Source of the DNA: an uncultured Halobacteriales archaeon
GTDB taxonomy: Archaea > Halobacteriota > Halobacteria > Halobacteriales > Hikarchaeaceae
Assembly: GCA_964510865.1 (NCBI GenBank)
Contig: CAZEDI010000004.1
Location: 249-64,248 of the forward strand
Length of the DNA: 64,000 bases
Direction of reading: 5' to 3'
Below are positions 2,206 to 63,902 of the stretch, in pieces; positions within the stretch are counted from its first letter, which is position 1; the number at the start of each line of letters is the position of its first letter. The notes beneath the pieces are model-generated. The model did not search any database. It was not told the origin of the DNA and was given only the letters and a program-made list of their open reading frames with translations. The position numbers and the translations under genes are program-made.

Positions 2206-4218
2206 GTGACAGCGATGCCCCGGACCGGCTGGCTTGCTATCGTCGTGCTACTACTCGTGACGGCGAGCCCTGGCGTCGAGGCGCTGGACGATGCTGGGAG
2301 TTCACAAACAAGTGTCGAGGGACAGACGATCCAGCTAACACAAGAACTCCACCTCACGCCAGATCGGGCGGGAGAGATCGATGTCATCCAGTCGTTTGCG
2401 ATACCATCCTCGGTTACGCGGTTACGGACGCGGATCCCCGCAAAAGCAACACTGCTCGAGGCACGCGGCTTCAGTCATGATAGTGGGAGTACGTACGTGT
2501 GGTCAGGTGATGGTCCCACCCCATCTCTCACGTACCGTGTACCGGCGAACGAAACGATCGATGCGGGTGGGCCGATTGCGAGTCATGGGAAGTACCGCTT
2601 CGTCGACGCGGGTGAGTGGGCCCTCGTCCGTCGACCGCAAACTGCCGTCAGCTGGGAGTGGCGCGGTGAGGACGACGTCACGGTTGCTCGATCACTGTCC
2701 ATTGCCGGACAGGGAGTCGCAGGTGAGGAGATGGCATACCTCGGTGCACACCGCGTCGTTACCCATACCGCAGCCGGACAGAGGTTCGAGCTCGTCGTTC
2801 CTGCCCGTGCCGAATTAGGTGAACCTCCCGCAGAAATCTTCGACGTCGTCTCGCACGCCTCACGCGAACTTCAGGTCGGCGACCGGGACGAGGAGGTGTT
2901 CATGGTGGCTGCACCGACCACTGGGGTCGATTGGGGCGTCCGTGGTATGCAGACCGGTGCCGCGGACCTCTGGGTTCGCGATGCTGAACAGATCACAACG
3001 GCCGAAAACGTCTGGGTCCACGAATACGTTCACACTCGCCAGAACTTCTCAACCGTAGAGGCTACACGATGGGTCAGCGAAGCTGTGGCCACATACTACG
3101 CGGCATTGTTCACACTCGAACAGGGGATGATCGAGTACGACACGTTCCGTACGCGCCTCGCCGCAGGTACGGCGGATCCTCAGGCTCGGGCCATCCTTAC
3201 CGAACCCGATACCTGGTCGAATACTGCACAGTACGACAAGGGGGCGCTCGTTATCGGAGCGATCGACCGTCAGATTCGTCTCGCGACTGATCGCCGGGAT
3301 ACGTTCCAGCACGTATTCGCTAGCATGAACACAGAGAGTGACGTGGTCACCTCGGAGGTGTTCCTGGACATGGTTCAGGAGGTAGCCGGACCGTCAGTTC
3401 GAGCTGATACAGAGCAGTTTACCACGACGAGAGCAGCCCCCGAGCTATGGAGTGAAGCCGAACACACCAGGGTGTTTGAATCCGATTCCACCCAGATTAG
3501 CCATGTACTCGTTTCCGATTCCTTCGAGGTATCCGGGCCCTACCGAAACAGATCGCTTGAGAACCTGATACTCGTCCCGGGCGAGCGACTCTCGCTGGAG
3601 GCCCGCGTCACAAACACCGGTGGGAGTGCGGACACATACGACGTTGCGCTACGAGTCGATTCTGAACCTGTCGCACGATCGTCGGGTATTCTCGACGCAG
3701 GCGCAACCACCCATGTGGAATTCGGCCACCCGTTCGAATTGGTCGGGAACTATATACTCGCTATCGGAGCCCACACTACAGAAGTACGCGTCGACGGACC
3801 AGCGACAGCTCGGGTTGCCGACCTCTCGGTCGATCGTCAGTCTGTCGAGACTGGACAGCGCATCAACGTGACCGCGACGATCCACAATTCCGCTATGATC
3901 CCTGGAGAAGCACTCGTTCGATTCCGCACGGATGACCGGACCATCGCCACGCGGACCGTGCGTCTCGATGCCGAGACATCACACACCGTTTCGATTCCTG
4001 TCTCCTTCGAGTCGGGTGGAATGCATCAAATCACAGCCGGTACCGCAACGGTAACGGTCGAGGTTTACCCAGCAGGGAAGACGGAGACCAGCAGTGAGAC
4101 AGACCGAGTTCTCACGGCGAGAGAGACGCCAACGGATGGACAGCCCCTCGACGGTTTCGGGGGTATACCTGCCTTACTTGCCATCGGACTCGTCCTGCTC
4201 CTAGCCCGGCGGAAATGA
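2206..4218 (+). CDS. secreted gluzincin-like (M1-like HEXXH) metallopeptidase-domain protein with a PGF-CTERM-like anchor
   Basis: N-terminal Sec-type signal (LAIVVLLLVTASPGVEA). HEYVH followed by WVSEAVATYY, resembling the M1 WLNEGFA third-ligand region. C-terminus DGFGGIPALLAIGLVLLLARRK is a variant PGF-CTERM (DGF instead of PGF). Confidence 0.7.
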   Translation: MTAMPRTGWLAIVVLLLVTASPGVEALDDAGSSQTSVEGQTIQLTQELHLTPDRAGEIDVIQSFAIPSSVTRLRTRIPAKATLLEARGFSHDSGSTYVWSGDGPTPSLTYRVPANETIDAGGPIASHGKYRFVDAGEWALVRRPQTAVSWEWRGEDDVTVARSLSIAGQGVAGEEMAYLGAHRVVTHTAAGQRFELVVPARAELGEPPAEIFDVVSHASRELQVGDRDEEVFMVAAPTTGVDWGVRGMQTGAADLWVRDAEQITTAENVWVHEYVHTRQNFSTVEATRWVSEAVATYYAALFTLEQGMIEYDTFRTRLAAGTADPQARAILTEPDTWSNTAQYDKGALVIGAIDRQIRLATDRRDTFQHVFASMNTESDVVTSEVFLDMVQEVAGPSVRADTEQFTTTRAAPELWSEAEHTRVFESDSTQISHVLVSDSFEVSGPYRNRSLENLILVPGERLSLEARVTNTGGSADTYDVALRVDSEPVARSSGILDAGATTHVEFGHPFELVGNYILAIGAHTTEVRVDGPATARVADLSVDRQSVETGQRINVTATIHNSAMIPGEALVRFRTDDRTIATRTVRLDAETSHTVSIPVSFESGGMHQITAGTATVTVEVYPAGKTETSSETDRVLTARETPTDGQPLDGFGGIPALLAIGLVLLLARRK

Positions 4219-4227
4219 TGAGACGAG

Positions 4228-4845
4228 TTAGAAAAACTGGAAGAGGTCGTCTCGGTTTGCGTCGTGGAGGTGAACGCGCACTGCATCCTCCAGCGCTTCG
4301 AGGTCACCTCGTGTGGCGGAAATCGGAGCGATAGTGTCCCGCCATTGACGCCAGGGCGGGAGGAGACCGAATCGGTCGGCGATCTCGTCCAGGCGCTCGT
4401 CTCGGTCAGATACCTTGTCCATCTTGTTGACGGCCAATACAACTGGAATATCCAGCTCACTGAGAACAGCGTACATGTCGAGCACGTACGGCACGTCGTT
4501 GTCACCCTCGTGGCGATCGATGATATCTACCGCACTCTTCCCGTCGAGGACGATCACCGCGACAAAAATCTCATCGGCATGTTGCTCGAGATATCTGACG
4601 ACGTCGGTTTTGATGGTCTCTCGTCTATCCTCTGAGATGCCAGCCATGAATCCGAATCCTGGAAGGTCGGTGAGCAGAAAATCCGCAGACGCCCAGTCGT
4701 AATAATTCGGCTCGAGCGTCACGCCTGGACGGCTCCCGGTATCGAAATCATGACCGGTGAGTTGTCTCATCAGCGTGGTTTTACCGACGTTGGAACGCCC
4801 CACGAGAACGACCTCTGCCTCGCGATCGGGCCGGTCCGCGAACAT
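4228..4845 (-). CDS. engB: GTP-binding protein EngB/YsxC
   Basis: G1 [10 protein letters not shown]3 DLPGFG, G4 NKMDK. Size and layout are typical of archaeal EngB. Confidence 0.9.
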
Positions 4846-4964
4846 GGCTTCGATTGACTGCGTGCGGGGAAGGACCTCACGGTTCGAACCCGTCCGGGTG
4901 TGTCCACACCATTCTTCCCGTGAAATCCACTGTCTATTTGGGCCACGACGACGACCACTCGGCC

Positions 4965-6284
4965 GTGCGGTTCGTCGAGATCACAATTCCAACTGGCAAA
5001 CGAGACGCGGTCCTTCGGGTACTCGAGGACGAGGGGATCGACTACGTGCTCACCGAGCAGACGGGCAGTCGTGAGTACACTGCTGTCGTTTCGTTTCCGC
5101 TTCCGCAACCTGCCGTCGAACCAGTCCTCGATAGACTCCGGAATGCGGGTCTCAGCAGTGAAGCCTACACTGTCGTTCTCGAAGCAGAGACCGTTATCTC
5201 GCGACGCTTCGACGAACTAGCCGAACGCTACGAGGAATCTGATACCGGCACGGATCGGATCGCTCGCGAAGAGATCAGTTCGCGGGCCGACGATCTTGCT
5301 CCGACACTGGCAACCTACACAATGATGGTGAGCGTGAGCGTCGTCATCGCGACAGCGGGAGTCCTCCTGGACTCGGCGGCGATCGTCGTTGGATCGATGG
5401 TTATCGCGCCCCTCATCGGGCCAGCAATGGCTACGAGCGTCGGGACGGTCCTCCAGGATCGGGGACTGTTCCTCCGTGGGACGAAGCTCCAGCTCCTGGG
5501 GTTCCTGCTCGCGATCGCGACAGCCGCGGGTTTCGCGTGGCTGCTCAAAGTCACGTATCTCGTCCCGATTTCCTCCGTCGAGCTCGTGGGGATCGACGAG
5601 GTCCGCCAGCGCCTCGCGCCGGACATCCTATCACTGGTGGTCGCACTGGGCGCCGGCATAGCCGGTGCATACAGCCTGTCCTCGGGCGTCTCGACATCGC
5701 TCGTTGGCGTGGCAATTGCTGTCGCTCTCGTTCCTCCGACTGCAGTCATCGGCATCGGAATCGCGTGGGGATTGCCCGGAGTCGTGATTGGCTCGACCAT
5801 TCTCGTGCTGGTGAACTTTCTCTCGATCAATTTGGCCGCACTCGCCGTGTTTTGGTACCAGGGCTATCGCCCAGAACATGGATTCCACATCTCGGAGGCG
5901 CGTTCGGATACGATCAAACGTGTTGCCGCGCTCGGGGTCGCTATCCTCGTGCTCTCGTCATTCCTGGGTGCGGTGACCGTCTCATCTTATCAAACAGCGA
6001 CCATCGAAGGAGATGCGCAGACGGCAGTCGAGACGGTCCTTGACCGTGACAGGTACGAAAATCTTACACTGATCGAGGTGTCCTTCGAGACGGATACCGG
6101 CCCACTATTTCGGACACCAGAACGCGTGATTGTCACAGTCGGCAGACCGTCACAGAACGCCTACCCCACCTTTGCGACCGACCTCGCCGACCAGCTAGAG
6201 AGCGGCATCGCCGTCGAGGTGCGGTTTGTCGAGGTCGACAGGGTTGGCGGTGAAGGCGTCCCACCACTTCCACAGCAACCGTGA
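4965..6284 (+). CDS. TIGR00341/DUF389-family membrane protein
   Basis: N-terminal [29 protein letters not shown] is the usual start of this family, here a GTG at 4965 in frame with the track ORF 4854-6284. A multi-TM Gly/Ala-rich core follows. Confidence 0.8.
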
Positions 6285-46319: not shown

Positions 46320-48677
46320 TTATTGTGATTGCATCTCCTTCGTTTCTGTTGTCTCGTTTAACTCCTCGTCCTGTACGATCAGGTCGATCTTGTAGGTCGT
46401 GTGATGGCTGTCATCGGAGAGCAGGTCGTCCGAACCTGAAGCACTACTTCCGCTGACGTCGGTCGTCGAGCTGTCGTGAATACGCCCGTCGTGGCGGATC
46501 TGTGTCGTCACCTGATTGAGGTCGCCTTCATTGTCCGAGACTGCCCAGTCTACGCCGAACTTTGCTTGATTCGGATTGCTGTTGTTCTGGACGTCGAACT
46601 GGTCGATGATCGGTGCGCCTGTACCCTCTGCGGCCGTGGTGACGGACACCGTATTGCTCATCCCCGACTCGTTGTCGGCACCGTCGACTGCAGTCACTTC
46701 GAAGTCGTACGTCGTGCTGGGCGACAATCCACGGACGGTCGTCTCAGTTTTCATCGGGTCGATCACCTCTTTCACCTTTGTCCCATCCTGGTAGACGTGG
46801 TACTGATCGATGCCCGTCGCGTTGTCCGTCGATGGGTCCCAGTCGAGGTCGACCGAATCATCAGAGTGGTTCGGCGAGGTGAGGTTCTGGGGTGTCGATG
46901 GTGCGGTGGCGTCACTCGGTCGGCCGTTCCGGACGAACCGGAACCGCTCGATGTCGGCAACTCCCGATCCGCCGACGAACCGGAGGTAAACGTCGTGGAC
47001 ATTTGACGCAGATGAGACAGCAATGGCTTGTCGCGAGAACGTGTCGTACCCGCCCGTGTCCTCGACCGTGAGGGTGCCGAGAAGCGTTCCGCTCGGACCG
47101 TCAAGCCGTACCTCAACGTCATTTCCGGGAGAGCCACTCGACAGAATCGCTTCGAACCGGTCTACACCGTCGCCGAAGTCGATACCCGCATACTTCGCCC
47201 AGTCGCCGTCGTCCGCGCTGGTGAGCACGCTACCACTGGCGTCGACGCCCGAACCGTCGTCAATGTGCTCCGCCTGGATGACATCAGTCGCGGAAACTCC
47301 AGAAGTATCCATCTGGACCGTAATACTCCTCGTGTGCGTAGGATCACGAACGGTAACGTACTTGGCCCCACGTTCGCCGTTGCCGCGGGCTGTGATCTGG
47401 TAGGTTCCGAGGAACGCATTCGTCGAGTACGAGCCACTCCCGTCGGTGGACCCCGACGTGTTCGTCCACCACTGGTTGAAGAGCAGGTCAATGTAGTTGT
47501 AATAGCCGGGTTTCTTCGTCCAATCGGTTTCGAAGAGCGGTGCTTGGTCCTGCCAGTGACGGCCGCTATAGAAGCCCCACATCTGGAATCCAACGGTGGC
47601 GGGATGACTGTAGATCACCTTCATGAACTTATAGAGATAGTCACCGGCGTGGTTGTCGTTGTTCATATCAGCAGTATCGTACTCCAAAATCTGAATGGGG
47701 TGCTCGTCGATGGCGTGGAATTCGTCGAGAATAGACAATAGCGTACTCGCGTCCTGCTCGGGACGCGAGCCCCAGTGGTGACCCTGCATCCCGATCGCGT
47801 CAAGCGGGGCGTCGTTATCGACGAGGTGATTGATGAAGGTCTTGTAGTTGTCGTTGCCATCCTGGTTGATGACGTTGTAATCGTTCGTGTAGAGATCCGC
47901 GTGACCCGCTTCCGACGCTGCTTCCTCGAACCAGCGGAGTGACTCCGTTGGCTGATACTGCGGGTCCTCTTCGTTGATCTCGTCCGTCACGGCGGTCTCG
48001 TGTGACGGCTCGTTCTGAACACAGAACTCAGTAAACCCGACCGTGTCGGCCCAGTAACTCGTGAAATCCCGTTGACGTTGACGGGTCTCGTCCTGCAAAT
48101 ACTGATCATCCGGGTTGTCCTTATTCAACTCATCCACGATCCGCTGTGGGAGCGAAAAGTCAGTGTGCTGCCAGATGTTCGTGTGGCCGTGGATGTTGAG
48201 ACCTCGGTCGATCAGCCAGTTGATGGTATCTATCGCTTCCTGCTGGTCGTCATCCTCCCACTCGTTTTCCCAGGGTGCCCACTTGTTTCGATTCTCAAGT
48301 TGGGACTTGTTGAACAGATCTCGAAGGAACCGTCGGTAGTTCCCGCCGGGACTCGTCTGATCGATGAAATACTGCGCATTCGCTGCCGATCCGAATCCGA
48401 ACTCGTGCTCGACCATCGCGACGTCGACGTCAGCGTTGGAGACCGCGTTGCCCGAGGAATCGAGGACAGTTACGTCGATATCAGTCGTTCTGTACTGCTG
48501 GATCCGATTATCTGCGTCTGCCTCCCAGGCAGAGGCGAGGCCGGTGAACGCGCCCAACCCAGCGAGCCCGATGGCCGCCGGTATTGCCTTGAGCGCAGTC
48601 CGTCGCTCGATGGGGAGATACCCCTTCGAGTCATCATCAGTCGGTTCAGCGTCCGCTGTATGGTTATTGTCACTCAT
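46320..48677 (-). CDS. Tat-secreted GH10 endo-beta-1,4-xylanase with CBM6-like, FN3 and a C-terminal shared module
   Basis: RRTALKAIPAAIGLAGLGAFTGLASA. GH10 motifs LENRNKW, GHTNIW, VQNEP (acid/base Glu), TNDYNV, GMQGHH, ILEYD (nucleophile Glu). CBM-like IQAEHIDDGSG...RFRFV. FN3 PSTPQNLTS...YDFEVTAVDGADNES. Start at MSDNNH (48677). Confidence 0.85.
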   Translation of the reverse strand: MSDNNHTADAEPTDDDSKGYLPIERRTALKAIPAAIGLAGLGAFTGLASAWEADADNRIQQYRTTDIDVTVLDSSGNAVSNADVDVAMVEHEFGFGSAANAQYFIDQTSPGGNYRRFLRDLFNKSQLENRNKWAPWENEWEDDDQQEAIDTINWLIDRGLNIHGHTNIWQHTDFSLPQRIVDELNKDNPDDQYLQDETRQRQRDFTSYWADTVGFTEFCVQNEPSHETAVTDEINEEDPQYQPTESLRWFEEAASEAGHADLYTNDYNVINQDGNDNYKTFINHLVDNDAPLDAIGMQGHHWGSRPEQDASTLLSILDEFHAIDEHPIQILEYDTADMNNDNHAGDYLYKFMKVIYSHPATVGFQMWGFYSGRHWQDQAPLFETDWTKKPGYYNYIDLLFNQWWTNTSGSTDGSGSYSTNAFLGTYQITARGNGERGAKYVTVRDPTHTRSITVQMDTSGVSATDVIQAEHIDDGSGVDASGSVLTSADDGDWAKYAGIDFGDGVDRFEAILSSGSPGNDVEVRLDGPSGTLLGTLTVEDTGGYDTFSRQAIAVSSASNVHDVYLRFVGGSGVADIERFRFVRNGRPSDATAPSTPQNLTSPNHSDDSVDLDWDPSTDNATGIDQYHVYQDGTKVKEVIDPMKTETTVRGLSPSTTYDFEVTAVDGADNESGMSNTVSVTTAAEGTGAPIIDQFDVQNNSNPNQAKFGVDWAVSDNEGDLNQVTTQIRHDGRIHDSSTTDVSGSSASGSDDLLSDDSHHTTYKIDLIVQDEELNETTETKEMQSQ
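46323..46619 (-). other. 99-aa C-terminal module of the xylanase, homologous to the protease tandem modules
   Basis: GAPIIDQFDVQNNSNPNQAKFGVDWAVSDNEGDLNQV aligns with the protease third module APVIDQFDLTDTSNPHWARVEVDWGVSDVDNDLSAV. Confidence 0.7.
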
Positions 48678-59488: not shown

Positions 59489-59508
59489 CCCACGACTGAA
59501 GTCGTGGG
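59489..59508 (+). terminator. perfect 8-bp stem / 4-nt loop hairpin (CCCACGAC-TGAA-GTCGTGGG) followed by CTTTCT, 7 nt after the stop codon
   Basis: Read directly from the sequence. Also marks the point where composition starts to change. Confidence 0.3.
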
Positions 59509-59755
59509 CTTTCTCCCTGCCTCCGTGTGAGTACGGTATTCACCTTTCCTATCTACTGGCATTGGAAGGCGAGATCACGACTGGAATTCTATCGTCGATC
59601 GCCTATCACGCGGTGTATCGGGGGGAGTCGGTTAACGGGTATTGCGAACGATTTGCGTGAATAGTCAGCCAGCTGGGCTCGTCAGAGATGAAGAGGTCGG
59701 TTAAGAAGGTTACCCGTCCGAAGGATTTTCTCTGTGTCTGCGCAATTTCACTACC

Positions 59756-60016
59756 ATGGCCACCCAAACCTACGACGATTCCAACGAGGAGGGGGTCGAG
59801 TTTATTCATGAGGACGACGGCTCCATCACGGCCAGGGATAAGGAGATTGGGGTGGCCTCGTTTGGGCATACAAAGGCCGAGGCATTGCGAATGCTCGCCG
59901 AAGCTTTTACGCTCCTTGAAGGCGGTGGGGAGCCAGTGACTGAGGAAGGTCTCGAAGAGTGGGGACTAGACTCCCAGGAAGAAGGGGACAAAGAACTGCC
60001 CGAATTCATGCAGTAG
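59756..60016 (+). CDS. hicB: HicB-family antitoxin-like protein
   Basis: EFIHEDDGSITARDKEIGVASFGHTKAEALRMLAEAFTLL is the HicB/UPF0150 fold pattern. Acidic C-terminal tail. Confidence 0.7.
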   Translation: MATQTYDDSNEEGVEFIHEDDGSITARDKEIGVASFGHTKAEALRMLAEAFTLLEGGGEPVTEEGLEEWGLDSQEEGDKELPEFMQ

Positions 60017-60262
60017 GCGTCGATAGCCAGTACGCAATTATCCGGTCACGAGATAGCCGACGTCTTGTATAACCATGGTTTTCGGGAAGCAGGCCGGACT
60101 AGAAGTCATCTCAAACTACAGTGGGGGAGTTTTGAAACCGACGAAGTACGGATCGTGTCAGTGCCTATGACTTCAGAGGACGATATCCCGAGGAATTTGA
60201 GGACCCCACCATCGACAAATGACGGACTGCGAAGTTACTCCACCGCCGGACCGTCTCGCTGA
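60017..60262 (+). pseudogene. hicA: HicA-like toxin reading frame with no canonical start, in frame with hicB across a single TAG
   Basis: LSGHEIADVLYNHGFREAGRTRSHLKLQW...RIVSVPMTSEDDIPRNLRT matches the HicA pattern (LSG..GF....GSH....VP.H...). The only start candidate is a TTG at 60065, inside the conserved N-terminus. Confidence 0.45.
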
Positions 60263-60400
60263 TCGAGTTTAGATTAGAACTGCTTTCTCACCCGAGAAAG
60301 GCAAAGGTATCCGCTTCATGATCCAACTAGAGTACTGGCTGGACAGTGATTTGGACCGAAGTTGTTCGATATGATCATGACGCCACTGCAATAGGAGGTC

Positions 60401-60692
60401 ATGATGTCTCGAAATAAGGAATACATCGCGATGTTTCCCGAGATGGAGAAGAACTTCGTTCCGAATCCATTACAGGACTGATTCCGGCCAATGCGACATT
60501 CAATCACGCCGAAGAAAGCTCACATGAGAACGCCGAACGTTTCATCAAGGGATTTGAACAGTGACACGGCATCAGGAACAGGACCGACCTGTGAGAGAAG
60601 ACAAGTTTGACTCGATGCCCGAGCGAATCAGTGAGAACTTCAACCGAGTTCGGGAGCGCTTGGCAGAAGAGCTCGGTGACGACAGCGAGTAA
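60401..60692 (+). pseudogene. possible decayed small gene read through three frames
   Basis: AGGAGG then ATG at 60401. MMSRNKEYIAMFPEMEKNFVPNPLQD* / IPANATFNHAEESSHENAERFIKGFEQ* / TRHQEQDRPVREDKFDSMPERISENFNRVRERLAEELGDDSE*. The segments abut at 60481 and 60564. Confidence 0.25.
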
Positions 60693-60879
60693 CTTTCAAG
60701 ATCAGTTTATTCAATAAACGGCCGTCCGCACCTGCAAGGAGCGTCGGGCGGCCTCAGCTTCCAGCGGGAGCGGGGGTGATTAGAGTCATATATTTCCCGA
60801 ATTAAATAGAATTATCACAAAAATAACTATTTGAATAAATTAGACAATTTCTTATGGTGGTGCTAAGTAGGCTGATGAC

Positions 60880-62193
60880 ATGAAACAAACCTCTTCGGAT
60901 ATTCAAGAGATCATCACCGGTGAGCCGTTCCAAGAACTGGATGAAATCCTTAAAATTGCTGATGAGGATGGATTCGTTCTTGAAGCAAATGAGTATGAAC
61001 TCAAGGAGGCGATGGCAGATCTTGAACAATTGTTAGAGTATTTAGAAACTGCTATCGAGAGTGAAATATTAGATAATTTCACCCACCCAGAGCGCCAGAG
61101 TATCATTGAGCGATTGAAGAAAATTCGAGGAGAGTTAAACAATATAAAAAATGACAGAAATGACCACGTGGCTCAACTGATTAATCAGACTGCTGACTTA
61201 AAGAAACTTGTTCTCCGTGAGCTGAATCTGAAGTACGAAGTTGCTGATCATATTGACTATTCAGAACAAATACAGGAAATCCAGGAATTGACAGAAGAGC
61301 AAATTGAGCTACTCAGTGTCTTACGAGATGCCGAAGATATTGTGAGTGAAATTTCTGAGTTCGAACAACGATTAGAGGAAATGTCCTCTAATGCGCAAAC
61401 TGAGTTGTCCAATATTCAGGATTTGCGGTCAGATGTTGAATCTGAAGTAGATCAATTCAAAAGCTTTCTCGATCGACAAAACGACGAGTTATCGAATAGA
61501 CGAGATGAGGTGGACCGACTAACAAATGAAATCGAATCGGACCACGAACGAGCCAACCAGATGACTAATAATATTGAGAACTTAGAAGAACAACTTTCTA
61601 ATAATATAACGAAGGTAGACCGTCTTCGAGAAGAACTCAATAATTTGGTTAATCGAGCTTCATCTCTTCAGGACGATGTGGATGATCTTTTATCTGGAGC
61701 TGTTAGTGGAACTCTAGGCAAACGATTCGAAGAGAGGAAAATGGAGCTGGAAAATTCCTCGCGGTATTGGAGCCATATGACCTTGGTCGCAGTGATATTA
61801 TTAATTGGATCGGCATACCTAATTTTCCAAGACATCGTTGGACGAAGCGAGGTAGGATTCACAACAATTTCAAAATTGGCACTTTTGCTTCCAGTCTCGG
61901 TTGCGGTTTGGTTCACAGCAAGTAACTATGGAAGGGAAAGGAAACTTTTGGAAGAATATGCCTTCAAAACAAGTGTATCACTTTCATTAGACGGATTTAG
62001 GGAAGTTTTGGAAAAACAAGTTCCAGAAGAAGAAGACTCGACGATTAGTGACTTCCTTATTTCTTCAATGGCCACTATCTATACAAATCCCCTGTTTAAT
62101 CTTGCTAAATCTGATAGTGATGAGAATCCAGAGGATGGTACAAGTTTCGGGACCATGAGAAAACTAGCGGATTCTATACGTAATAGGAATTAG
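60880..62193 (+). CDS. AT-rich foreign gene: about 290-aa acidic coiled-coil N-domain, 2-TM hairpin, about 90-aa cytoplasmic tail; no family recognised
   Basis: Long clean ORF in the most AT-rich stretch of the window, with AAA/AAT/TTA/GAA-rich codon usage unlike its neighbours. Heptad-like E/L/N/Q-rich sequence to about residue 290. TM1 MTLVAVILLIGSAYLIF, TM2 ISKLALLLPVSVAVWFTA (about 61768-61920). No signal peptide. Confidence 0.75.
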   Translation: MKQTSSDIQEIITGEPFQELDEILKIADEDGFVLEANEYELKEAMADLEQLLEYLETAIESEILDNFTHPERQSIIERLKKIRGELNNIKNDRNDHVAQLINQTADLKKLVLRELNLKYEVADHIDYSEQIQEIQELTEEQIELLSVLRDAEDIVSEISEFEQRLEEMSSNAQTELSNIQDLRSDVESEVDQFKSFLDRQNDELSNRRDEVDRLTNEIESDHERANQMTNNIENLEEQLSNNITKVDRLREELNNLVNRASSLQDDVDDLLSGAVSGTLGKRFEERKMELENSSRYWSHMTLVAVILLIGSAYLIFQDIVGRSEVGFTTISKLALLLPVSVAVWFTASNYGRERKLLEEYAFKTSVSLSLDGFREVLEKQVPEEEDSTISDFLISSMATIYTNPLFNLAKSDSDENPEDGTSFGTMRKLADSIRNRN

Positions 62194-62391
62194 TAACTAG
62201 GTCTGGGTTATAGTTATACTTAGATTGGAATCGAATCCGATTTGTTCCCATTATCTGCCGGAGCTAAGCTCGCCAAGTTTGGTGAGGAGTACGGACTAAT
62301 CGAGATCGCGTATGAACAGCTCGGGGCGAGGTCCCACGACTACGGTGCGGCGTCATCTGGATCATAGTCCGCACCAGACGCGTCTAGATCC

Positions 62392-62969: not shown

Positions 62970-63584
62970 TCATTCCGGTAACTCGGATTCCCTTGGCATG
63001 ACAGAAAGCGCGCCGGAGTCGTCGATTGTTATCAACACGGTGAGAGTCATTTCCAGAACATCAGTATCTAACCGGACTACATCCTGAAACGTGTACTCTC
63101 CGGGCGGATAACAAGTTTCGGAGTCGGCCTCGTTATACAGGGAAAAGGTAGCCGTGGCGCTTTCACCCGGTGCCAACGTTTCCCCTCTCAAGACGGCATT
63201 CACGGTGACCTCTTGGCTCTCCTCGAACTGCCAACAACCATCCATGGGTCCCGTCGGTTGGTTGTGGATGTCATCAGCTGCAGGCACGACGATTAGCCCT
63301 TCAGGTTGTTGGGTACTGCCTGCCGTAAACATCAGCGATTGACCATAACCCACGGTTACCGCCTGCTCTCCCTCGTTGGTTAACGAAACACGGAATTGTG
63401 GAGGGGAGGACTCCGACGGCTGTGTGACCATCGTCGAAATGAACGAAAACTGGTAGTCTGAAGGTGAAGGGGTCGAAGTCGTTGTTGGAGATTCCTCTCG
63501 GAGTGAGGTCACGCAACCAGCCAACCCGAACAAGAGGGATGAACCGCCGTAGTGGAGAACCTTTCTACGAGTGACGGAGGGCAT
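62970..63584 (-). CDS. Tat-type lipoprotein, function unknown
   Basis: MPSVTRRKVLHYGGSSLLFGLAGC (RR motif plus lipobox), Ser/Thr/Pro linker, beta-rich mature domain with two Cys. Confidence 0.65.
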   Translation of the reverse strand: MPSVTRRKVLHYGGSSLLFGLAGCVTSLREESPTTTSTPSPSDYQFSFISTMVTQPSESSPPQFRVSLTNEGEQAVTVGYGQSLMFTAGSTQQPEGLIVVPAADDIHNQPTGPMDGCWQFEESQEVTVNAVLRGETLAPGESATATFSLYNEADSETCYPPGEYTFQDVVRLDTDVLEMTLTVLITIDDSGALSVMPRESELPE

Positions 63585-63705
63585 GTACGAAAGGGTATTC
63601 GGGATCATACATATGCCTTCTGTGAGTTTATTCGGAGATCGGTACGCAGGTCCAGAAATTCACCAAGATCCCCACACAGTGCCGAGCAGCTTACGGCGAC
63701 CGCAA

Positions 63706-63830: not shown

Positions 63831-63902
63831 TGGACTCGCCGGGATTTGAACCCGGGGCCTCTTCCTTGCGAAGGAAGCGATCTGCCGCTGATCTACGAGC
63901 CC
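63831..63902 (-). tRNA. tRNA-Ala (anticodon CGC)
   Basis: Hand-folded from the reverse complement: GGGCTCG TA GATC AGCGGCA GATC G CTTCC TTCGCAA GGAAG AGGCC CCGGG TTCAAAT CCCGG CGAGTCC A. All stems pair. G3:U70 is the Ala identity pair. U33 and purine-37 are present. CCA is not encoded. Confidence 0.9.

Follow-up and report, generated by a model that had tools for sequence, protein, structure and literature searches.

The AT-rich gene and its surroundings

We analyzed a stretch of 64,000 nucleotides from an uncultured Halobacteriales archaeon (assembly GCA_964510865.1, contig CAZEDI010000004.1), which is referred to below as the window. Toward its end lies an AT-rich open reading frame (ORF), here called the target ORF, which encodes a protein with a predicted helical head, a long acidic stalk, and a C-terminal two-helix membrane hairpin. 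Upstream of it are a DUF7387 gene and a HicA-like remnant, and downstream are the remnant of a tyrosine integrase gene and a tRNA gene. The positions of these features are given in Table 1.

Table 1. Positions, in the window, of the target ORF, the segments of its product, and the neighboring features
Feature	Position	Strand	Basis and remarks
DUF7387 gene	59756-60016	+	Pfam DUF7387, E = 6.7e-33
HicA-like remnant	60020-60262	+	Pfam HicA_toxin, E = 6.8e-4, below the gathering score; no canonical start codon
AT-rich leader, probable promoter region	60782-60879	+	GC content 0.29; ~35 nt common with locus L011
Target ORF	60880-62193	+	437 aa, ATG start, stop codon included; AT-rich foreign single-gene cassette
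N-terminal helical head domain, aa 1-117	60880-61230	+	AlphaFold2, jackhmmer
Long acidic stalk helix, aa 128-298	61261-61773	+	Heptad coiled coil at ~aa 125-265, then pre-TM helix, aa 264-298
TM1, aa 299-321	61774-61842	+	Hydropathy peak 2.25, AlphaFold2; direct continuation of the stalk helix
TM2, aa 329-349	61864-61926	+	Hydropathy, AlphaFold2; K332, invariant P338, F345
Cytoplasmic juxtamembrane helices, aa 350-412	61927-62115	+	Motif Y350-x3-R-x-L-x-EEYAFK plus S369, L370, F392, P404
Haloarchaeal tyrosine integrase remnant, ~35 aa	62455-62562	+	tblastn
tRNA-Ala(cgc)	63831-63902	-	ARAGORN; Rfam tRNA, 67 bits

The GC content of the target ORF is 0.397 versus 0.585 for the whole window, and it is the lowest of all 1314-bp segments (z = -5.3). 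The second-lowest region, near position 48000, has a GC content of 0.52. The GC content at third codon positions is 0.37 in the target ORF versus 0.54 to 0.76 in all other ORFs of at least 100 aa, and the rest of the window looks like an ordinary haloarchaeal chromosome. These values bear out a preliminary description, made from the DNA sequence alone, according to which this segment is the most compositionally deviant of the window and its codon usage is unlike that of every neighbor. The same description stressed the length of the uninterrupted frame. Indeed, at the composition of the target ORF about 6% of random codons are stops, and by simple arithmetic 437 open codons would occur by chance with a probability of ~5e-13. 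We conclude that the target ORF is not a chance event.

The region preceding the ORF turned out differently from what had been described, namely, 180 bp of almost pure A/T. The GC content of positions 60700 to 60879 is 0.43; positions 60720 to 60781 are GC rich, and only the last ~100 bp are AT rich, with a GC content of 0.20 at positions 60782 to 60850. This leader contains the TATA-like sequence ATTTCTTA centered ~29 nt 5' of the ATG, a position that would fit a leaderless archaeal transcript. A scan for sigma-70 promoters and terminators was set aside as not applicable to an archaeon. DNA similarity to the locus of the nearest relative (L011) begins 35 nt 5' of the ATG and ends within the target ORF, and nothing else is shared between the two loci.

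Domain organization of the encoded protein

AlphaFold2 modeled the full protein from an alignment of 54 sequences with a mean predicted local distance difference test score (pLDDT) of 82.7. According to the model, the N-terminal head consists of five helices (residues 2 to 13, 17 to 29, 41 to 60, 69 to 91, and 96 to 115; pLDDT mostly 85 to 94). A short disordered linker (residues 118 to 127) leads to a single unbroken helix (residues 128 to 321), in which the stalk passes directly into the first transmembrane (TM) helix. After a turn of ~5 residues, the second long helix (residues 327 to 380) begins as TM2, and three shorter helices follow. The C-terminal module (~175 aa) was modeled with a pLDDT of 84 and a predicted template modeling score of 0.68. 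The head domain, which has no match in Pfam, is proposed to be a sensor or interaction domain.

The preliminary description had seen about 290 residues of acidic coiled coil in front of the membrane hairpin. The acidity is evident, with 73 D+E versus 31 K+R and a pI of 4.3 in the N-terminal 290 residues; strong acidity is normal for cytoplasmic proteins of haloarchaea. A single coiled coil, however, is not what we found. The heptad contrast is 0.56 to 0.81 over residues 121 to 260, and strong periodicity is confined to residues ~125 to 265, so that the supposed coiled coil is composed of the separate head domain and a stalk of ~140 residues. In the pre-TM helix that follows the coiled coil, the residues L279, F283, R286, and W297 are conserved.

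Other features that had been read from the sequence withstood the analysis. No hydrophobic segment is present at the N terminus, in agreement with the predicted lack of a signal peptide, and two hydrophobic helices, at residues ~299 to 321 and ~329 to 349, correspond to the two-helix membrane hairpin. Basic residues flank the two TM helices where they face the stalk and the tail, which argues for an in-in topology, with ~7 residues left for the outer loop. The natural reading is that both ends of the protein would be cytoplasmic, as had been suggested.

A large family of proteins with a conserved C-terminal module

A word-index search with the window protein yielded four relatives only (60, 49, 35, and 36% identity), and the homologs P0002 to P0005 showed 60 to 24% identity to it. 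In contrast, an exhaustive HMMER search with an alignment of the C-terminal module detected 2,199 cluster representatives at E <= 1e-3, among them 641 at E <= 1e-10 and 50 at E <= 1e-30. Family members are 146 to 581 aa long and occur in bacteria and archaea, and the module is always C terminal. Thus, the earlier statement that the protein cannot be assigned to any family needs a distinction: no curated family covers it, but with more than 2,000 cluster representatives it is neither rare nor an orphan.

Conservation was measured over 219 collected family proteins. It peaks, at 2.71 bits/column, in the cytoplasmic helix that follows TM2, in which Y360 and F362 are invariant and K363 is present in 98% of the sequences. 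This segment contains the tail YGRERKLLEEYAFK, which had been called conserved looking and is indeed the most conserved part of the family. TM2 follows with 2.14 bits/column and P338 in 100% of the sequences, whereas TM1 (1.38 bits/column) and the outer loop (0.78 bits/column) are the least conserved segments. The family signature can be written as a pre-TM helix with L..F..R....W, TM1, a short loop, TM2 with Pro, and Y..RER.L.EEYAFK...SL. The window protein has every invariant or near-invariant residue of the family, including W297, P338, Y360, and F362.

The head domain was found in 93 of the 219 proteins by jackhmmer searches started from residues 1 to 125. Head-bearing members come from Acidobacteriota, Bacteroidota, Ignavibacteriota, Proteobacteria, and archaea, and they include a protein encoded within a restriction-modification (R-M) operon (locus L046; see below). 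Shorter members consist of stalk and module only. When the head domain was sought in other architectures, only short stand-alone ORFs were retrieved (P0159 to P0168; 111 to 215 aa), one of them on a 280-kb contig; these could represent pieces of split or truncated genes, or else a small protein in its own right.

Searches of curated libraries and structure databases

When the full-length window protein was compared to Pfam, NCBIfam, PADLOC, and PHROGs, all matches except that to phrog_30912 were coiled-coil matches below the cutoffs. They included SMC, Rad50, LmuB, JetC, tape-measure, and HBL proteins and reflect coiled-coil composition. We rejected these matches because they were confined to residues ~30 to 290 and, in the SMC, Rad50, LmuB, and JetC models, to the coiled-coil portions, were far below the cutoffs, and disappeared when the C-terminal module was searched alone. 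An ATPase of the SMC, Rad50, LmuB, or JetC type was rejected in addition on the ground that the protein has no ATPase domain; the Rad50 match reached 27 bits versus a cutoff of 1000. The match to Pfam DUF4407 was also dismissed (19 bits versus a gathering score of 31.3; E = 9.5e-4): it covers the coiled coil and TM1 only, and 4 of 54 members show it.

The C-terminal 176 residues alone matched nothing in Pfam or PADLOC, and no curated family of these two libraries is shared among 54 diverse members. PADLOC-DB v2, which includes 2TM effectors, PycTM, CorA-like proteins, and PDC candidates, returned no family for three close modules. With 34 isolated modules the best E value in PADLOC-DB v2 was 0.0016, each model being matched by one member; the matches of single members to AbiZ, PycTM, and CorA (one of the 34 modules each, E >= 0.0016) were considered noise.

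Structure searches gave a similar picture. Foldseek was run with the full model on PDB and BFVD and with the module model on PDB, and PDB sequences were searched with a profile; no match had an E value below 0.01. The matches of the module to the ESCRT-III/Vipp1 fold (E = 0.3 to 0.5; root mean square deviation above 30 Å) correspond to generic long hairpins and were rejected. Homology to a housekeeping or structural family had been named as an observation that would speak against a conflict-related function. No significant homology of this kind was detected in the Pfam, NCBIfam, PDB profile, or Foldseek searches.

The only relatives named in a database are phage proteins. The families phrog_30912 and phrog_34659 matched 11 and 5 of the 34 modules, with best E values of 5e-7 and 8e-8, respectively. 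The full-length window protein matched phrog_30912 over residues 143 to 387 (E = 4e-7), and its isolated module did not reach E = 0.001 with either of the two families. Scans of IMG/VR with two alignments gave no locus and one locus, respectively, the pattern-based scan being insensitive for this family. Literature searches, which were incomplete in coverage, so that an earlier description is possible, revealed no system with this architecture and no ORF at the pglX-pglZ position discussed below. We conclude that the family, its domain organization, and its fold are not catalogued, while a single-gene membrane effector of conflict systems is a known kind of protein.

Genomic contexts of the relatives

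The preliminary description had suggested a survey of homologs for defense islands and proviruses. A minority of the relatives is indeed found in such places. In two divergent Acinetobacter cassettes on different replicons, the family gene lies between pglX and pglZ of a type 1 bacteriophage exclusion (BREX-1) system and overlaps both genes by 4 nt. Altogether, 24 records of Acinetobacter plasmids contain a match to the family gene; a published account of these plasmids mentions the BREX segment but not the family ORF (PMC9455709).

Type I R-M operons are the second setting of this kind. The order hsdS-X-hsdR or hsdM-hsdS-X-hsdR, with X being the family gene, was found in the metagenome loci L007 to L009 (encoding P0004), L046, and L070, and in L007 and L009 a gene for a ThsB-type Toll/interleukin-1 receptor (TIR) protein is located directly 5' of hsdS. 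The P0004 loci form a composite defense locus, with genes for a MarR-type helix-turn-helix (HTH) protein and the ThsB-type TIR protein, hsdS, the family gene, ORFs of 357, 102, and 73 aa, and hsdR. The 357-aa protein has no Pfam match, and its start codon is located 107 nt 3' of the stop codon of the family gene.

Other relatives reside on phages, plasmids, and integrated elements. In the temperate Riemerella phage vB_RanS_GDF21, the family gene is located at the boundary of the lysogeny module, between early genes and an HTH/integrase block. On Vibrio plasmids, it adjoins an integrase gene and a gene annotated as "Abi family protein." The close long-form relative P0041 is encoded beside a Tyr_recomb_halo_N integrase gene on a 594-kb contig (L086; GCA_003781945.1, RJJW01000001.1, positions 490377 to 507666), in a haloarchaeal integrated element with many small ORFs, two Dam-like methylase genes, an HNH gene, and a ParA-like gene; this element is possibly a provirus. 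The gene for P0005 is located among insertion sequence elements, with Fic, IS200/TnpB, and DDE transposase genes nearby. Relatives were also found on mobilizable and conjugative plasmids, and further neighbors of family genes are a P-loop NTPase gene together with DUF4041 and a type IV secretion system (T4SS). In most loci the family gene is AT rich compared to its flanks (GC content of 0.38 versus 0.60, 0.46 versus 0.64 for P0041, and 0.33 versus 0.45 to 0.50).

In bacteria, we surveyed 57 loci in GTDB species genomes, which were scanned with a bacterial subset (A5) of the alignment. No conserved partner gene emerged: no neighbor family occurs in more than 6 of the 57 loci, and the 150 nearest neighbors are spread over 128 Pfam families. 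The answer to the survey question is divided: many homologs are located in ordinary chromosomal neighborhoods, which are considered below with the other points concerning function. A further neighbor that points to defense is a gene for a reverse transcriptase-trypsin fusion (L082, positions 3704 to 5311), two genes away from a short-form family member; such fusions are defense-associated reverse transcriptases.

Probable remains of an integrative element around the target gene

The surroundings of the target gene had been described as a tRNA-linked island with toxin-antitoxin-like genes and integrase debris. The latter two were readily recovered. The DUF7387 gene and the HicA-like frame (positions 59756 to 60262) probably represent a toxin-antitoxin pair in decay, the toxin being of the HicA type. 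Over ~35 aa, the integrase remnant is 53 to 69% identical to annotated site-specific integrases encoded on haloarchaeal plasmids, and the same segment also matches a gene in the locus of P0003 (L006). As for the tRNA, a tRNA-Ala gene is present nearby and is probably where the now degraded element had once integrated; no att-like duplicate of its 3' end was found anywhere in the window. Since no such duplicate marks a border, the linkage is positional only, and the degraded island lacks defined borders.

Between the HicA-like remnant and the upstream region of the target gene (positions 60263 to 60700; ~440 bp, GC content of ~0.47 to 0.55), there are only short ORFs of 26 to 63 aa without a Pfam match, probably gene debris from the former element. 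A GC-rich hairpin with a 9-bp stem (positions 60720 to 60753; GGCCGTCCG ... CGGGCGGCC) is located directly 5' of the AT-rich leader, and RNA folding of positions 60700 to 60790 gave a z score of -2.2. This hairpin could have served as the terminator of the upstream genes, now decayed, or could be left over from the boundary of an element. Just after a CNNM/CBS gene, at positions 59489 to 59518 (+), Rfam reported a subthreshold match to Acido-Lenti-1 RNA (23.5 bits versus a gathering score of 37; E = 0.03), which is most likely due to chance. Between the integrase remnant and the tRNA gene, an ORF of 212 aa (positions 62970 to 63608, minus strand) has a lipobox-like N terminus (LFGLAGC) and a Thr/Ser/Pro-rich linker, predicted features that are typical of a haloarchaeal secreted lipoprotein; Pfam gave only subthreshold matches to BsuPI and DUF4232.

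The preliminary description held that the target gene was probably acquired recently and is functional. The findings support this: no curated family covers the protein, its relatives are 60%, 49%, and 35% identical, only the ORF and ~35 nt of upstream DNA are shared with the nearest relative's locus, and in most loci the family gene is AT rich compared to its flanks. In our best explanation, the target gene was acquired horizontally, is a stand-alone accessory gene, and stayed behind when the integrative element that had brought it to the tRNA-Ala gene degraded.

Proposed function of the protein and alternative explanations

We give an about even chance to the proposal that the target protein is a mobile, autonomous single-gene membrane effector of the abortive-infection or exclusion type. 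We regard the gene as a mobile conflict gene because its relatives occupy positions in restriction operons like those of second-line effectors, because others are in cargo positions of prophages and integrated elements, and because the composition is foreign in most loci. A candidate defense, abortive-infection, or provirus membrane effector had already been suggested in the preliminary description. The locations of the relatives speak for this suggestion by association. No model of a defense system recognizes the protein.

The anatomy of the protein is compatible with such a role. In the model, stalk and TM1 form one helix, and the family is most conserved in the cytoplasmic juxtamembrane helix and TM2 rather than in the outer loop; together, these features fit a device that turns a cytoplasmic event into a rearrangement of the membrane hairpin. 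In the proposed mechanism, the C-terminal two-helix hairpin would anchor the protein in the cell membrane with both ends in the cytoplasm, and the acidic coiled-coil stalk, ~20 nm in length, would extend from the membrane into the cytoplasm and bear the small helical head. Head and stalk would keep an oligomer closed and sense a trigger. This trigger could be a viral protein or, for the relatives within R-M and BREX operons, the inhibition of the adjoining restriction complex. The signal would run along the stalk helix, which is unbroken into TM1, and the conserved TM2 and juxtamembrane helices would then rearrange, so that the membrane may become depolarized or permeabilized and the infection may be stopped.

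A more far-reaching version of this proposal is that the family constitutes a pan-prokaryotic class of coiled-coil-gated membrane effectors, in which the head senses a viral cue or the inhibition of R-M or BREX, the stalk opens a two-helix pore whose fold has no solved relative, and the protein acts both as a stand-alone abortive-infection gene product and as a guard in restriction operons. In that case the family would also be among the few defense genes common to haloarchaea, bacteria, and their temperate viruses. We consider this version conceivable but doubtful. In the window, the guard mechanism cannot apply to the target gene as such, since no R-M or BREX genes are present within its 64 kb.

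Besides this lack of a restriction partner, which counts against the guard form, several findings weigh against an effector. With PADLOC models, the full-length protein yielded only coiled-coil noise, and the module had no match. Among the 57 bacterial loci, which are mainly from Acidobacteriota, the majority have ordinary-looking neighbors, such as genes for ribonucleotide reductase, gyrase, CTP synthase, and ABC transporters, and only about one-tenth of the nearest neighbors in these loci are R-M, Fic, AbiEii-like, or transposase genes. The gene for the short-form member P0157 is located beside a class II aminoacyl-tRNA synthetase gene (tRNA-synt_2b), and the downstream gene order is common to the three contigs shown; the gene for another short-form member, P0156, lies among housekeeping-type genes. 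Finally, membrane proteins with helical hairpins can also be scaffolds.

These neighborhoods raise the question of whether the family could consist of nonimmune membrane scaffold or stress proteins, which, like EzrA, PspA/Vipp1, or ESCRT-III, organize or repair the envelope and whose presence on mobile DNA would be incidental. The subfamilies among or beside housekeeping-type genes and the mostly ordinary neighbors in Acidobacteriota are what such proteins would lead one to expect, and the best, nonsignificant fold matches of the module are membrane remodelers (CHMP1B, E = 0.33; Vipp1, E = 0.47), with weak Pfam matches to EzrA and DUF4407 pointing in the same direction. However, neither the fold matches nor the Pfam matches rise above noise, the family has a patchy distribution, as illustrated by the mere four relatives from the word-index search, and it lacks a conserved partner. 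Moreover, the gene is AT rich compared to its flanks in most loci and recurs within BREX and type I R-M operons and on mobile elements. We regard a scaffold or stress protein as a minority possibility, with a chance of roughly one in five.

The mobile elements themselves suggest another alternative, a superinfection exclusion or addiction factor, which would either keep competing viruses from entering the cell, delivering their DNA, or exiting, all without cell death, or stabilize the element. The family gene in the lysogeny module of a temperate phage, the relative adjoining the integrase gene of a haloarchaeal integrated element, the relatives that are carried by mobilizable and conjugative plasmids or have a T4SS as neighbor, the PHROG families matching the module, and the position of the target gene within the remains of an integrative element would all be accommodated. 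But the protein is predicted to be almost wholly cytoplasmic, and its sole external part would be the short outer loop, the least conserved segment of the family. A loop so tiny and variable makes the masking of a surface receptor or entry site unlikely. Furthermore, the placement within R-M and BREX operons suits a host defense module better than a phage-specific exclusion gene, and we judge an exclusion or addiction factor to be rather improbable. That the target ORF is intact but silent, decaying cargo like the degraded integrase and HicA genes, is suggested by its surroundings, with the ~35-aa integrase remnant, the HicA-like frame without a start codon, and the lack of an att repeat, but is very unlikely, because 437 open codons at 40% GC would not last by chance, all family-invariant residues are kept, and the promoter-proximal 35 nt are conserved in L011.

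Comparison with described systems

For the proposed single-gene membrane effector, the nearest functional analog is AbiZ from the Lactococcus lactis plasmid pTR2030. AbiZ is encoded by a single abortive-infection gene on mobile DNA beside an R-M system and has two predicted TM helices, no recognizable enzymatic domain, and no PDB fold match (PMC13064643). Its reported site of action is the membrane, where it probably cooperates with the phage holin to bring about premature lysis (PMC13064643). The target protein resembles AbiZ in being the product of a single gene on mobile DNA, in its two predicted TM helices, and in having neither an enzymatic domain nor a PDB fold match. It differs in that homology between the two is not detectable, as far as the comparison through the PADLOC model PDLC02354 goes. 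This model did not match the window protein, either in full length or as the module. Among the family members, it matched 2 of the 54 full-length proteins, with a best E value of 5.4e-6 in a background of coiled-coil noise, and 1 of the 34 modules (E = 0.0017). In addition, tblastn searches with two modules found no Lactococcus plasmid.

Second-line effectors in restriction loci are known from several systems: PrrC in type I R-M, BrxU (GmrSD) within BREX, and RonA, which is associated with hsdS-hsdM and, in some genomes, with BREX. RonA is a membrane-active effector that HsdMS restrains until anti-restriction proteins release it (bioRxiv 10.1101/2023.04.06.535777). The family gene shares with Ronin (RonA with HsdMS) and PrrC the genomic logic of "decoy immunity," in which a toxic effector is placed in or near hsdM/hsdS or BREX, since it is found at hsdS-hsdR and pglX-pglZ. 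In contrast, RonA has 61 aa and a single TM helix, PrrC is a soluble anticodon nuclease, and head, stalk, and 2TM module are absent from both. Like the copy in the window, most family members are also unlinked to R-M or BREX.

In CorA-type channels, among them the CorA-like effectors of type III CRISPR systems, and in ZorA of Zorya, too, a long cytoplasmic helix or coiled coil continues into a TM helix, an arrangement by which a signal from the cytoplasm can be coupled to a small pore in the membrane. CorA proteins share, in addition, the C-terminal two-TM hairpin with its short outer loop. However, the PADLOC matches to these proteins are noise or coiled coil only, and Foldseek revealed nothing. 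The family has neither the GMN motif nor a MotA-like four-TM core, and it has ~90 conserved residues after TM2. In contrast to these systems, phrog_30912 and phrog_34659 are true sequence relatives of the module; being unannotated, they add a phage distribution but no mechanism.

Implications

Should the proposed function prove true, a family of more than 2,000 cluster representatives that current defense finders miss would join the immune repertoire of prokaryotes, and its module would be a new type of minimal membrane effector without a solved structural relative. The recurrent place of the family gene in BREX and type I R-M operons would then add a tractable new example of layered or "decoy" immunity. 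Even if the defense prediction fails, the family would still be a widespread uncharacterized membrane protein that deserves a Pfam entry. If the prediction holds, the target gene would be among the few directly testable candidates in haloarchaea, in which antiviral defense beyond CRISPR and R-M is poorly known.

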